Of a stretch of 52,007 nt of DNA, positions 25,445-40,441 are shown piece by piece. Each line of letters begins with the position of its first letter. Within the stretch, counting starts at the first letter, position 1. Source of the stretch: an uncultured Gammaproteobacteria bacterium (lineage in GTDB: Bacteria > Patescibacteriota > Microgenomatia > UBA10105 > UBA927); assembly GCA_964400835.1 (NCBI GenBank), contig CAYNWD010000002.1, positions 25,604 to 77,610 on the forward strand. The letters run 5' to 3'. The notes beneath the pieces were generated by a model. That model worked only from the letters and a program-made list of their open reading frames with translations. It was not told the DNA's origin and searched no databases. Both the position numbers and the translations under genes were made by a program.

Positions 25445-26461
25445 ATGAAAAAGCTTTTGGCCAAATACCGCCGGGTCGGAATCGTGGTTCTCGTTTTCCT
25501 CCTCCTCGTTTTGGGCATTCGAAACCGGCTTTCGGCTGGAAAAGAAAAGAGCATTGAGCGCTACACCGTCGGCCGCCAAACTTTGCAAAAAACACTCACC
25601 CTCTCGGGCAGTATTGAGGCAGAAGTGACGGCTACCCTGCGGTTTCCCATATCGGGAAAGCTTGTGTGGGTCGGGGTCAGAGAGGGTGATGAAGTAAAAG
25701 CCTACCAGACTCTCGCGTCGCTTGACGTGCGAGAAACACAGAAAAAACTCGAGCGGCAGCTGCAAAGCTACCTCAAAACGCGTTGGGATTTTGAGCAGAC
25801 CGCAGATGATTATGAAGGGAAAATTCTGACGGACGCCATAAAGCGGATTCTCGAAAAATCACAGTTTGACCTCAACACCAGTGTCCTTGACGTCGAAATA
25901 CAACATCTCGCGCTGGAGTTGGCAAGCCTGGTAAGCCCCATACCTGGCATTGTCACCCGCGTAACTACTCCCGTCGCCGGCGTCTATATTTCGCCGACCA
26001 ATGCGGAATTTGACGTCGTGGACCCGGCGAGCTTTTACCTGTCCGTCCACGCCGACCAGACGGAAGTAACAGAGCTTACCGAGGGCATGGAGGCCACTAT
26101 CACTTTCGACGCGTTTCCCTCCCAGCGCGTGAGCGGTATCGTCAAAAAAATTTCGTACATACCCAGCCAAAACGAGACCGGCACTGTCTATGAAGTGTTC
26201 ATCGCGTTTCCCTTCGATCAGAGTGTTCGGACGCAATACCGTCTGGGCATGACCGCAGACGTCTCGTTTACGGTTTCTGAAAAACCCGATGTCCTCGCTA
26301 TCCCGCCGGAATTTCTCCTGGAAGAAAACGGGCAACCCTACGTATACAAGGAAACCGCCGGAAAAACCCAACAGACACCCGTGACAGCAGGCGAGGAATA
26401 CGATACCTTACAGGAAATTCTCACGGGGGTATCGGAGGGCGATGTACTCCGTAAAAAGTAA
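25445..26461 (+). CDS. Efflux transporter periplasmic adaptor (HlyD/MacA-like)
   Basis: N-terminal TM segment, coiled-coil hairpin and beta-barrel segments. Followed by the ABC ATPase and permease. Confidence 0.8.
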   Translation: MKKLLAKYRRVGIVVLVFLLLVLGIRNRLSAGKEKSIERYTVGRQTLQKTLTLSGSIEAEVTATLRFPISGKLVWVGVREGDEVKAYQTLASLDVRETQKKLERQLQSYLKTRWDFEQTADDYEGKILTDAIKRILEKSQFDLNTSVLDVEIQHLALELASLVSPIPGIVTRVTTPVAGVYISPTNAEFDVVDPASFYLSVHADQTEVTELTEGMEATITFDAFPSQRVSGIVKKISYIPSQNETGTVYEVFIAFPFDQSVRTQYRLGMTADVSFTVSEKPDVLAIPPEFLLEENGQPYVYKETAGKTQQTPVTAGEEYDTLQEILTGVSEGDVLRKK

Positions 26462-38567: not shown

Positions 38568-39631
38568 ATGCCTCCTTTCATCGCGTAACTGTAATGATTG
38601 GTCAGGATGGAAAACGGAAGATGCATGAAGGTGAAATCTCTCAGTCCGCGGGGCTCAAGTCCGTCGACGACTTCCACATTTTGAACCAGTATTTGTCTCG
38701 GTCCTCTCCCGCCTTCCCGATCAGGAACTTCCATATGTGTCGCCCACCCCACATGGTGCGCACCCGAACGGTAGTTCGTCTCCGCGACGATAAGCGGTGG
38801 CAACTCACTATCCTGCAAATCTCTCACGATCTGCTCATTGAGGTACGCGACCGCACCAGCCATGAGCCCCCGGCGCTCGTTACCCGGGCGCGTACGCCAC
38901 TCGGTGCTCTCAACGATCGGGATCGCTCTACCGTCCCCCAACGGTATGTCCAGCCGCTCTGCCATAGCTATGGAAAAAACAGTGTCGCCCGAGACCGCTG
39001 CGCTGAACCATTTCGTCCGCATCCCCAATCCTGTTTGCAAATTGCCCACCTGACCGGGCTCCCATCCAAACGTCTCAACCCATAATGCATCTATCTGAGG
39101 AATCATCCAATCCGCTATCCTGTCTGCAAAAACGATGCCATCGTGTCTAAGCCTACGGATTCTTTCCTGAGGTCCAATTGTACTGGTTGGCCGTTGGGAG
39201 GTGTGTGCGACCATCACCTGAATACCCTCTAAGGCCCGTCTGTCTGTGTGATTCATACCAAACATCACCAAGTGAGCCTGAATCTCCCCTTGCCAATTAA
39301 CAACGTGTGTACCGGCTTCCAGGTATTGATTCAGTTTCTCGTTTCCCAAAACCCCCTCATATACCTCCGGTGTCACCAGATATCGCCCGACGCAACGCGT
39401 CGCAAGACCCCTCCCAAGAGCATCTTGTGCGTACCTATGTTGACGGCCCAAAAAAGCCACATCGCCAACGAGTCCAAACCGCGCATTGAGATAAAGCCTG
39501 TCGTGTGAACGATGCTCCAATCCTAAACTGCCCGTACTTGTAAGAATTTCTTTCTCTGTCATAGGTTTTTCCATAACCCCGCTCGAAGCGGGATTGATGG
39601 TTAGTAAACTCGCTTCTCGGAATCTGCTCAT
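38564..39631 (-). CDS. Hypothetical protein (about 336-355 aa), translationally coupled to the HDAC-family gene; possible GNAT-like C-terminal half
   Basis: The stop overlaps the HDAC ATG (ATGA). No confident domain. The segment ESTEWRTRPGNERRGLMAGAVAYL is reminiscent of a GNAT acetyl-CoA loop. The start is ambiguous: 39631 lies inside a hairpin loop, and 39574 is an alternative. Confidence 0.45.
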   Translation of the reverse strand: MSRFREASLLTINPASSGVMEKPMTEKEILTSTGSLGLEHRSHDRLYLNARFGLVGDVAFLGRQHRYAQDALGRGLATRCVGRYLVTPEVYEGVLGNEKLNQYLEAGTHVVNWQGEIQAHLVMFGMNHTDRRALEGIQVMVAHTSQRPTSTIGPQERIRRLRHDGIVFADRIADWMIPQIDALWVETFGWEPGQVGNLQTGLGMRTKWFSAAVSGDTVFSIAMAERLDIPLGDGRAIPIVESTEWRTRPGNERRGLMAGAVAYLNEQIVRDLQDSELPPLIVAETNYRSGAHHVGWATHMEVPDREGGRGPRQILVQNVEVVDGLEPRGLRDFTFMHLPFSILTNHYSYAMKGGI

Positions 39632-39643
39632 AAACTAACCATC

Positions 39644-39667
39644 AAAAAACCCCTCTTGGTGAGGGGC
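39644..39667 (-). terminator. Intrinsic terminator inside the 5' leader of the 38564..39631 operon
   Basis: The minus strand reads GCCCCUC-ACCAA-GAGGGG followed by UUUUUU. It ends 13 nt before the ATG at 39631. Confidence 0.7.
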
Positions 39668-39697
39668 TTTGCTCGAAAATACAAAAAAACGTAACTT

Positions 39698-39778
39698 TTA
39701 CACGAGAAGGCCCCCCCTCATACGATGGGTTTGTTTCTTCTCCTTCTTGGCAATGGTTTGCACTACTGAGCTATTCAT
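39698..39778 (-). CDS. Candidate 26-aa leader peptide MNSSVVQTIAKKEKKQTHRMRGGLLV (Lys-codon cluster)
   Basis: My own translation. The ATG lies about 8 nt from the predicted TSS and has no SD. Codons 11-15 are AAG AAG GAG AAG AAA. The stop falls just after the G-rich antiterminator arm. Confidence 0.35.
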   Translation of the reverse strand: MNSSVVQTIAKKEKKQTHRMRGGLLV

Positions 39779-39792
39779 ACTACAAGTTCCCA

Positions 39793-39821
39793 TATATACA
39801 CGTATATTTCTGCCTTGTCAA
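39793..39821 (-). promoter_or_regulatory. Promoter TTGACA-17-TATATA
   Basis: The minus strand reads TTGACAAGGCAGAAATATACGTGTATATA, located right after the greA terminator. Confidence 0.7.
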
Positions 39822-39831
39822 TAGAACAATG

Positions 39832-39853
39832 AAAAAACCCGCCGGGTGGCGGG
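39832..39853 (-). terminator. Intrinsic terminator of greA
   Basis: The minus strand reads CCCGCC-ACCC-GGCGGG followed by UUUUUU, about 25 nt after the greA stop. Confidence 0.8.
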
Positions 39854-39878
39854 TTTTCCGGTCTTCGTAATGATTGCG

Positions 39879-40343
39879 TTATTCAATATGCAGAATTTTG
39901 TAAAGTATTTTGCCCGCCGGAGCCGCCACTTCCACTTTCTCCCCCACCTTTTTGCCCATGAGCGCCTTCCCCAGGGGGGATTCGTGAGAAATTTTCTTCT
40001 CCGCGGGATCTGCTTCCCATTCGCCGACCACGGTGAACACATCTTTTTTGCCGTTTATATGCAAGGTCACTTTGCAGCCCACGTCTACACTGCCTTTTTT
40101 GTGCGAGGTAATGATTTTTGCCGCATGCAAAATCTCCTCCAACTCCAGTATTCTGCCGTCTATGAACGAAAGATCCTGTTTGGCTGCCGCGTATTCGCTG
40201 TTTTCCGAAAGATCGCCCAGGTCGCGGGCGTCGGAAAGCCGCTTGACGACCGCCGGCCGTTTGGTAGCGGTCAGCTCTTCGTATTCGGATTTGAGCTCAT
40301 CCAAGCCCTGCTTGGTCATGAGTACTTTGTGGTTTGCATCCAT
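39879..40343 (-). CDS. greA: Transcription elongation factor GreA
   Basis: MTKQGLDELKSEYEEL...DLSENSEYAAAKQDL coiled-coil motif plus the C-terminal FKBP-like domain. Confidence 0.92.
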   Translation of the reverse strand: MDANHKVLMTKQGLDELKSEYEELTATKRPAVVKRLSDARDLGDLSENSEYAAAKQDLSFIDGRILELEEILHAAKIITSHKKGSVDVGCKVTLHINGKKDVFTVVGEWEADPAEKKISHESPLGKALMGKKVGEKVEVAAPAGKILYKILHIE

Positions 40344-40363: not shown

Positions 40364-40398
40364 AAAAAAAACTCCCCGCAAGACGTTTTGTTCGGGAG
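40364..40398 (-). terminator. Terminator hairpin plus U8 inside the greA 5' leader (GraL-like attenuator)
   Basis: The minus strand reads CUCCCG-(14 nt)-CGGGGAG-UUUUUUUU. It lies between the predicted greA promoter and the ATG, with only about 20 nt left before the ATG. Confidence 0.6.
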
Positions 40399-40412
40399 CT
40401 TAGGCTGTATAT

Positions 40413-40441
40413 ATTGTACCCAACTTCCCTTGCCCTGTCAA
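40413..40441 (-). promoter_or_regulatory. greA promoter TTGACA-17-TACAAT
   Basis: The minus strand reads TTGACAGGGCAAGGGAAGTTGGGTACAAT. Its -35 abuts the -35 of the divergent tRNA-Glu promoter. Confidence 0.7.

Follow-up and report, generated by a model that had tools for sequence, protein, structure and literature searches.

Does a short transcribed leader ahead of a lysyl-tRNA synthetase gene allow a patescibacterium to adjust that gene to its lysine supply, and if so, what does the sensing? The question is raised by a 52,007-nt stretch of DNA (hereafter the window; positions 25,604 to 77,610 of contig CAYNWD010000002.1, assembly GCA_964400835.1, classified in GTDB within the Patescibacteriota, Microgenomatia), which comes from the ~1.0-Mb genome, 100% complete, of an uncultured bacterium and carries on its minus strand a leader with a lysine-rich mini open reading frame (ORF), followed by an operon made up of a first structural gene (hereafter X355), a deacetylase gene and lysS. 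A preliminary description of the window had proposed that a ribosome reading the Lys codons of this ORF chooses between a terminator and an antiterminator. The comparison of 33 leaders and of the genes behind them supports this proposal, and we consider it quite probable that the leader is a ribosome-mediated transcription attenuator that senses the availability of lysyl-tRNA(Lys) and controls the X355-deacetylase-lysS operon.

Direct reading of the sequence found all leader features on the minus strand where the preliminary description had put them: a TTGACA-17-TATATA promoter, a 26-codon ORF and an intrinsic terminator (Table 1). The ATG of the ORF, said to begin near the predicted transcription start site (TSS), indeed lies 14 nt past the -10 hexamer, with the TSS predicted ~7 nt 3' of that hexamer. 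A scan for consensus signals listed neither the leader promoter nor the leader terminator; the promoter was missed because the scan accepts only T as the sixth base of a -10 hexamer, and the terminator apparently because the scan extends its stem greedily into the U-tract. A DNA search of 40 relatives with the leader and its flanks left the leader itself unmatched and returned instead a conserved stretch just past the U-tract (39589-39651), a separate hairpin designated R1 that is described below. Non-conservation of the mini-ORF, which this search had first suggested, was overturned by protein-anchored retrieval of orthologous loci through homologs of X355 (30-56% identity), comprising their contigs and 12 further loci from species genomes.

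The orthologous loci retrieved in this way share the synteny greA - leader - X355 - HDAC-family gene - lysS. At every one of them the leader upstream of X355 contains a mini-ORF, 21-27 codons long and including a Lys cluster, the stop codon of which lies 24-31 nt before a CCCCUC-loop-GAGGGG-U4-7 terminator. A covariance model built from the leader (R2) was then used for a wider search, yielding, before removal of false positives, matches in 29 of the 87 genomes of the order and scattered matches elsewhere in the phylum. The cross-matches discarded (loci L105-L107, L111, L112, L073 and L070) corresponded either to the 3' end of rplL (L7/L12), reading EEAKKKLEAAGAKVELK before the stop codon and followed by a terminator, or to a Lys-rich histone-like C-terminus, and matches of both kinds will need filtering in any broader R2 scan. 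After this removal, the count stood at 33 distinct homologous leaders, orthologous or paralogous, from metagenome-assembled genomes of Gottesmanbacteria, Levybacteria, Saccharibacteria and other Patescibacteria. Their anatomy is common to all: an ORF of 20-28 codons, a Lys cluster of the form KKxKK, KxKK or KKK (33 of 33), and a stop codon 23-33 nt ahead of the terminator (30 nt in the window), with the terminator CCCCUC...GAGGGG and its U4-8 tract kept in nearly all. As features of the sequence, the ORF with its Lys cluster and the terminator can be regarded as established, and so can the competing pairing and the lysine-related regulon detailed below.

The genes downstream are lysine-related at all 33 Lys-leader loci, in every lineage. 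Most loci have the arrangement X355 - HDAC - lysS seen in the window. Elsewhere, a class I lysS follows the leader directly (L104, L061b) or after a small gene (L097, L102, L067), an M20 peptidase gene precedes a class II lysS (L101), or an X355-like or GNAT gene is accompanied by an M20 deacylase gene (L093, L099, L103, L069). The leader of L100 precedes lysW-lysX-lysY of the alpha-aminoadipate (AAA) lysine pathway (Pfam PF21344; PF22626 and RimK; PF01118), and that of L098 precedes a gene without assigned function followed by dapF (PF01678). Locus L061 has two Lys leaders, one ahead of X355-HDAC and one ahead of lysS. Genes for class I (L052, L056, L061, L097, L102, L104) or class II LysRS (the window) were observed to occupy one and the same place in the gene order greA - Lys leader - ... 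- lysS, which argues that the synthetase has been exchanged and the leader kept.

Sister leaders built on the same scaffold, found in relatives of the same order or class, carry other codons at the place of the Lys cluster: FFYYF or YYYFYF ahead of aromatic amino acid genes, and WW ahead of a TrpRS-like gene (Table 1). Of all the evidence for the ribosome as the sensor, this agreement between the type of codon and the downstream pathway weighs most. One more sister leader, at L110 (MQSMLQGKYFTTKTPILGGVLAVA), precedes a gene without an identified product.

The mini-ORF itself shows a coding-like pattern of substitution. Among 17 aligned leaders, the ORF frame is open in all 17, and the other two frames contain stops in 16 and 11 of them. 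The mini-ORFs of the window and of L050 differ at 11 codons, five of the differences being synonymous and six non-synonymous. AAA and AAG interchange at the Lys positions (26 and 42 occurrences, respectively, in the aligned leaders), and the codon between the Lys pairs varies freely, encoding E, A, S, T, V or F and including UUC and GUU, so that the conserved unit is the Lys codon rather than a purine tract. Beyond the Lys cluster the peptide is poorly conserved, save for the G-R-G residues encoded by a G-run in the ORF, which is the pattern that one would expect of a sensor ORF. In the 24 leaders in which scanning located a promoter, the ATG lies 7-15 nt past the -10 hexamer in 23 cases and 6 nt past it in the remaining one, the distance being 7 nt in five leaders. 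With the ATG so near the -10 hexamer, the mRNA is likely to be leaderless or near-leaderless. The caveat of the preliminary description that the mini-ORF has no Shine-Dalgarno (SD) sequence is accordingly borne out as an observation, but as an objection it would be answered by this near-leaderless start, a leaderless-type initiation accounting for the missing SD.

These observations bear directly on the possibility that the attenuator works without a ribosome, a factor such as LysRS or a small ligand binding the purine-rich AAGAAGGAGAAGAAA tract or the G-run and the open frame being of no consequence. Whichever sensor acts, the choice between terminator and antiterminator is available, the ORF has no SD, and the autoregulation of an aminoacyl-tRNA synthetase (aaRS) gene by its own product has a precedent in E. 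coli thrS. Such a sensor would nevertheless leave unexplained why the frame is open in all leaders and the others closed, why conservation follows a 3-nt period (AAR AAR NNN AAR AAR) in which the middle codon is free and can be pyrimidine-rich, why the ATG keeps a short fixed distance from the -10 hexamer, and why, in sister leaders, Phe/Tyr or Trp codons replace the Lys codons to match the pathway behind them. An Rfam riboswitch match was likewise not found in the leader. No Rfam family reached its gathering score there, and at E <= 10 only terminator-driven noise appeared, Phe_leader (17.4 bits, cut-off 55) and Trp_leader (15.6 bits) both matching terminators only. The T-box model (RF00230), which detects a T-box in L002 at 94.3 bits, gave no match in 39300-40100 even at E <= 10, and T-boxes do occur elsewhere in the source genome. 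The lysine riboswitch (RF00168, the five-helix L-box aptamer) had no match in the leader at E <= 10 and none at gathering score in the window; the leader ahead of the terminator measures only ~125 nt, most of it ORF. The search for known riboswitch classes that the preliminary description had recommended thus ended with no riboswitch or T-box model matching the leader, and we regard control by a bound ligand or protein as improbable.

The case for a ribosome-read attenuator rests further on the RNA pairings that the leader can form. All leaders have a G-run in the 3' part of the ORF (GAGGGGGGG in the window, GGGAG(A/G)GG in most others), and since the sequence of the G-run is that of the terminator 3' arm, it can pair with the terminator 5' arm. 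This 2:3 pairing is extended by a helper helix, CUCG:CGAG in the window and, in relatives, CGUGG at the end of the ORF together with a conserved spacer motif, UUUCCACGAA. Alignment with MAFFT and folding with RNAalifold recovered the terminator only; because the registers of the leaders differ in alignment, duplex energies were computed sequence by sequence, taking the 3' part of the ORF as one strand and, as the other, the terminator 5' arm and loop together with the 12 nt that precede them, and were compared with those of shuffles and permutations. Over the 33 leaders the antiterminator duplex has a mean energy of -20.2 kcal/mol (range -10.0 to -26.7), as against a mean of -10.9 for the terminator hairpin, and z is below -2 relative to shuffles in 32 of them. 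The duplex of the window, in which codons 20-26 of the ORF form the pairing segment, reaches -22.1 kcal/mol, a value equalled or bettered by 2 of 300 shuffles. Cognate segments paired better than non-cognate ones in 20000 of 20000 permutations, indicating covariation beyond the shared GGGG:CCCC core. For about half of the leaders, folding without constraint already gives the antiterminated form as the minimum free energy (MFE) structure, which places the two states close in energy. Comparison of orthologous leaders, as the preliminary description had advised, hence finds the Lys codons and the G-run/terminator segments kept in the 33 leaders, and the pairing of segments 2 and 3 that it had drawn for one genome both conserved and covarying.

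Its segment 1 fared less well. The preliminary description had equated this segment with the Lys codons themselves, pairing with CCUUCUC; the corresponding AGAAGG:CCUUCU helix is seen in the MFE structure of the window (-9.3 kcal/mol, a value reached by 2 of 200 shuffles), but it stands out in only 10 of the 33 leaders. A C-run, loosely defined so as to include CCAC, occurs 0-7 nt past the last Lys codon in all 33, and the G-run begins 6-16 nt past the same codon. Judged from this conservation, segment 1 would be mainly the C-run just past the Lys codons. The G7 homopolymer pointed out earlier within segment 2 (C7 on the plus strand, 39711-39717) is present and, by comparison, specific to this genome, L050 having GGAGGGGCG at that place. 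A change in its length would shift the frame of the leader ORF and alter the antiterminator.

Conservation of the ORF could also be read as that of a functional small basic peptide with its own terminator, the operon being expressed by read-through or from another promoter and no amino acid being sensed. Some attenuator peptides, such as peTrpL, are indeed described as acting in trans (PMC7298713). Against this, little of the peptide is conserved beyond the Lys cluster and what the G-run encodes, the ORF covaries in its 3' part with a terminator arm, no consensus promoter is evident between terminator and gene in leaders lacking R1 (17-25 nt, SD included), and the Lys-specific regulon would be left without explanation; a free-standing peptide gene is in our judgement very improbable. 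Least credible of all is a leader that responds to ribosome-targeting antibiotics or general translation stress, rather than to lysine, by means of a K-x-K (+X+) arrest motif in the manner of erm, msr and mef leaders, for although the motif is described as macrolide-sensitive (PMC12583479) and any translational slowdown at that point would favour the antiterminator too, the genes behind all 33 leaders are lysS and lysine metabolism genes and never resistance genes, some leaders have KKK with no intervening residue, and leaders with aromatic or Trp codons precede their cognate pathways.

For the ribosome-mediated attenuator, the following course of events may be proposed. Transcription would start ~7 nt past the -10 hexamer, placing the ORF almost at the 5' end of the RNA, and translation would begin by leaderless-type initiation without an SD. 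With lysine plentiful, the lead ribosome would pass KKEKK and cover the G-run (codons 20-23) and the CUCG near the stop codon; the terminator 5' arm, 31 nt past the stop codon, would be left free for its 3' arm, and RNA polymerase would stop at U6. With lysine scarce, the ribosome would stall on the last Lys codons, covering the C-run with the G-run still exposed. Together with the helper strand, the exposed G-run could then pair with the emerging GCCCCUC and CGAG to form the antiterminator, permitting read-through into the operon. In this scheme the TSS, the translation of the ORF, the geometry of stalling and the response to lysine are steps that we infer from the comparisons above.

Several observations weigh against the scheme. 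The ORF has no SD and the predicted 5' untranslated region is ~7 nt long in the window rather than 0, so that efficient initiation is an assumption. The 1:2 hairpin between C-run and G-run is predicted everywhere, at -1 to -7.5 kcal/mol, and is indistinct from shuffles. The folding energy of the whole leader is no better than that of shuffles (z = -1.1 and +0.8); as the consensus scan and Rfam also gave nothing distinctive, the sequence of the window by itself could not decide the matter. Equilibrium folds computed with a ribosome mask switch uncleanly, and when the mask places the A site at the last Lys codon, the MFE structure is still the terminator in 12 of 17 leaders, the window among them. 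Since these masked equilibrium folds are equivocal, the mechanism must rest on the order of co-transcriptional events, as in trp, a reliance on kinetics that we likewise infer.

In kind, the element would be a classical leader-peptide attenuator, set apart by its near-leaderless start, its presence in the candidate phyla radiation (CPR) and the regulon that it reveals. With the trpL, hisL, pheL, leuL, thrL and ilvL attenuators of Proteobacteria it shares a short ORF in which regulatory codons are clustered, an intrinsic terminator, an antiterminator formed from an ORF-distal segment, and downstream genes that supply the sensed amino acid. It differs from them in its Lys codons, in an ORF that is near-leaderless rather than SD-led, in its Patescibacteria host and in the lack of sequence or covariance-model similarity, and its antiterminator G-run lies inside the ORF, whereas that of the Proteobacteria attenuators comes after it. 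Control of an aaRS gene through codons for its own amino acid is shared with E. coli pheST (the pheM leader peptide) and, in Bacilli, with the His leader of hisS/hisZ (PMC2965389). Those cases differ from the present one in amino acid, sequence and phylum, and here lysine biosynthesis genes and GNAT-deacylase pairs stand behind the same leader family as well. The lysine riboswitch (L-box, RF00168) and the T-box of Bacillus cereus lysK/lysS are functional analogues, cis-acting leaders through which termination before lysS or lysine genes depends on the status of lysine or tRNA(Lys); they sense ligand or tRNA directly through RNA structure, and the window leader matches neither model. The lysine cluster of Thermus thermophilus reportedly has a Lys leader peptide (Tsubouchi et al., J Biol Chem 2005). 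That leader is said to combine a tandem-Lys ORF with a terminator before AAA-pathway genes, a logic like that of L100; the CPR element, by comparison, is spread widely over several classes and stands mainly before lysS or GNAT-deacylase pairs. Phrase searches of the literature consulted for a lysine leader peptide, a lysS leader or a lysine attenuator found none, and neither did searches joining Patescibacteria with leader peptide. To our knowledge, no amino-acid-sensing leader peptides have been described in Patescibacteria.

The hairpin R1, ~55 nt long and of the pattern UUGAUG(n)GUUAGU...ACUAACCAUCAA, has no Rfam match and is present in 69 of the 87 genomes of the order, each containing 1-11 copies. 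Paired cells make up 95.8% of its alignment, and none of 500 shuffles reaches its covariation score. Each copy examined directly adjoins the U-tract of an intrinsic terminator, and the terminators that precede it are of T-box, leader-peptide and short promoter-proximal type alike. Behind it stand genes of the translation apparatus, and those noted include greA, aaRS genes, fusA-like, rplC-like and rpsA-like genes, tRNA-Tyr and 16S rRNA; further copies were located in genome G000 (contig positions C4:35333-35394, C19:16828-16889 and C4:45934-45985) and at loci L002-L049. In the window, L054 and L055, R1 is inserted past the U-tract of the Lys leader, flanked by T-runs on both sides, and it is missing from most orthologous Lys leaders. 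In the orthologs without it, an SD and an ATG (MTEKE..., MTNAE...) come within 17-25 nt of the U-tract. R1 is no part of the attenuator. The notion that it sequesters an SD was dropped, the real SD lying outside the pairing in several copies. A small GC hairpin follows R1 in the window, and similar ones follow it in L055 and L043. In the greA leaders of L006 and L020, R1 comes after the terminator; the greA leader of the window (40364-40441, minus strand), which consists of TTGACA-17-TACAAT and then CUCCCG...CGGGGAG-U8 ~20 nt before the ATG, has no R1. An R1-like hairpin scoring 33.6 bits was also seen outside the window (G000, C15:13294-13342, minus strand) before a gene for a 233-aa release-factor-like protein. 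Upstream of this hairpin, a 56-nt duplicate of the first 19 codons of that gene constitutes an upstream ORF, the UGA of which lies inside the 5' arm of the hairpin.

Recognition of R1 also changes the start of the first structural gene. The preliminary description had the terminator only 13 nt before the first long ORF, a distance that depended on ATG 39631 as the start of a 355-aa ORF. This start is spurious, as the ATG sits in the loop of R1. The starts of homologs (MTEKEM.., MTNAEI.., MSNSEI..) correspond to ATG 39562, and the database gene call begins at 39574 (P0002, 336 aa); with either start, the terminator is really 70-82 nt upstream of the gene. The operon had been described as an unannotated gene, an HDAC-family gene and lysS, and Pfam assignments agree. 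A confident structural model of the X355 product (predicted local distance difference test score, pLDDT, 89.7) weakly suggests a tandem GNAT-like fold, Foldseek returning GNAT, FemX, VipF and the MprF C-domain as weak matches with template modelling (TM) scores of 0.3-0.38. The closest solved homologs of the HDAC-family protein are acetylpolyamine amidohydrolases (APAH), at 281 bits. The deacylase that partners the GNAT-like protein is of APAH/HDAC type in some lineages and of M20 type in others (L093, L099, L103, L069, L101). Because non-homologous deacylases fill the same slot behind the same leader, a function in lysine supply may be assigned to the unannotated X355 family. The arrangement suggests that the GNAT-like protein and the deacylase together provide an acyl-transfer plus a deacylation step in lysine supply, possible roles being the release of lysine from N-acyl-lysine or an acetylase-type branch of the diaminopimelate (DAP) pathway.

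Table 1. Leader elements and neighbouring genes of the window (minus-strand features read from high to low coordinate), with leader peptides and sister leaders of other loci.
Feature	Position or locus	Strand	Remarks
-35 hexamer TTGACA	39821-39816	-	Direct reading; TTGACA or TTGACG with 17-nt spacer kept in orthologous leaders
-10 hexamer TATATA	39798-39793	-	17 nt past -35; TATATG or TATATA at the same place in orthologs
Leader ORF, 26 codons + TAA, peptide MNSSVVQTIAKKEKKQTHRMRGGLLV	39778-39698	-	ATG 39778; no SD
Regulatory Lys codons AAG AAG GAG AAG AAA	39748-39734	-	KKEKK, codons 11-15; cluster in 33/33 leaders
Segment 1, C-run CCCAUC	39729-39724	-	4 nt past last Lys codon; weak pairing with G-run
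G-run GAGGGGGGG	39719-39711	-	G7 at 39717-39711
Segment 2, GAGGGGGGGCCUUCUCG	39719-39703	-	G-run and CUCG helper strand; CCUUCU pairs with Lys-codon tract in this genome
Helper helix, 3' strand CGAG	39675-39672	-	In stop-to-terminator spacer; partner CUCG 39706-39703
Intrinsic terminator (segments 3 and 4) GCCCCUC-ACCAA-GAGGGG-U6	39667-39644	-	Hairpin -10.4 to -12.3 kcal/mol; GCCCCUC 39667-39661, loop ACCAA, GAGGGG 39655-39650, U6 39649-39644
R1, conserved hairpin, UUGAUGGUUAGU...ACUAACCAUCAA	39649-39589	-	R1 model 76.5 bits here
Small hairpin AAUCCCGC-UUCGA-GCGGGGUU	39595-39575	-	Follows R1, just before AUG 39574; direct reading
X355, first structural gene	39562-38564	-	ATG 39562 (MTEKEILTSTG); alternative 39574
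Acetylpolyamine-amidohydrolase-like (HDAC family) deacetylase	38567-37560	-	Pfam PF00850, 265.8 bits
lysS, class II lysyl-tRNA synthetase	37563-36052	-	Pfam PF00152, 290.5 bits, and PF01336
greA	40343-39879	-	Pfam GreA_GreB_N and GreA_GreB; upstream of leader; own terminator 39859-39832
Leader peptide MNSSVIQTEAKKEKKQTHLRRGVILV	L050		
Leader peptide MSTNCLFSKKAKKQSLTGRGARGII	L053		
Leader peptide MNNGIVIIKKTKKQSPTGRALRGR	L057		
Leader peptide MNTIVVSVSKKKPSLRGFCLG	L061a		
Leader peptide MQILCIQILDSKKKPLKGLSLLLR	L063		
Sister leader MNSQRNQNFFYYFTPVLGGDCVA	L108		DAHP-synthase-like gene (Pfam match below cut-off) and prephenate dehydratase (PF00800, 147 bits)
Sister leader MKTQSSQYYYFYFTPSLGGAALVAHT	L043		DAHP-synthase-like gene (Pfam match below cut-off)
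Sister leader MTNTYQQIKFSWWRHSK	L077		Class I W/Y synthetase of TrpRS size, PF00579, 225.8 bits

For annotation, these results correct the start of the 355-aa ORF and tell R1 apart from the attenuator. For the biology of CPR bacteria, they offer a testable regulatory mechanism, namely an attenuator of classical type whose start is unusual in being near-leaderless, and would extend leader-peptide control to lysine and to lysS, a possible Thermus precedent aside. Any gene found behind a Lys leader is probably tied to lysine supply, which points to a lysine-related role for the X355 family and its partner deacylases, and some CPR lineages would keep lysW/X/Y and dapF under lysine control. We hold as evenly balanced the broader proposition that leaderless leader-peptide attenuators form a general and previously undescribed system of the Patescibacteria, with Lys, Phe/Tyr and Trp versions, and that the Lys regulon implicates X355 and the deacylase in the making or salvage of lysine. 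If this is true, organisms thought to depend on a host for their amino acids would possess a pair of proteins for making or salvaging lysine.

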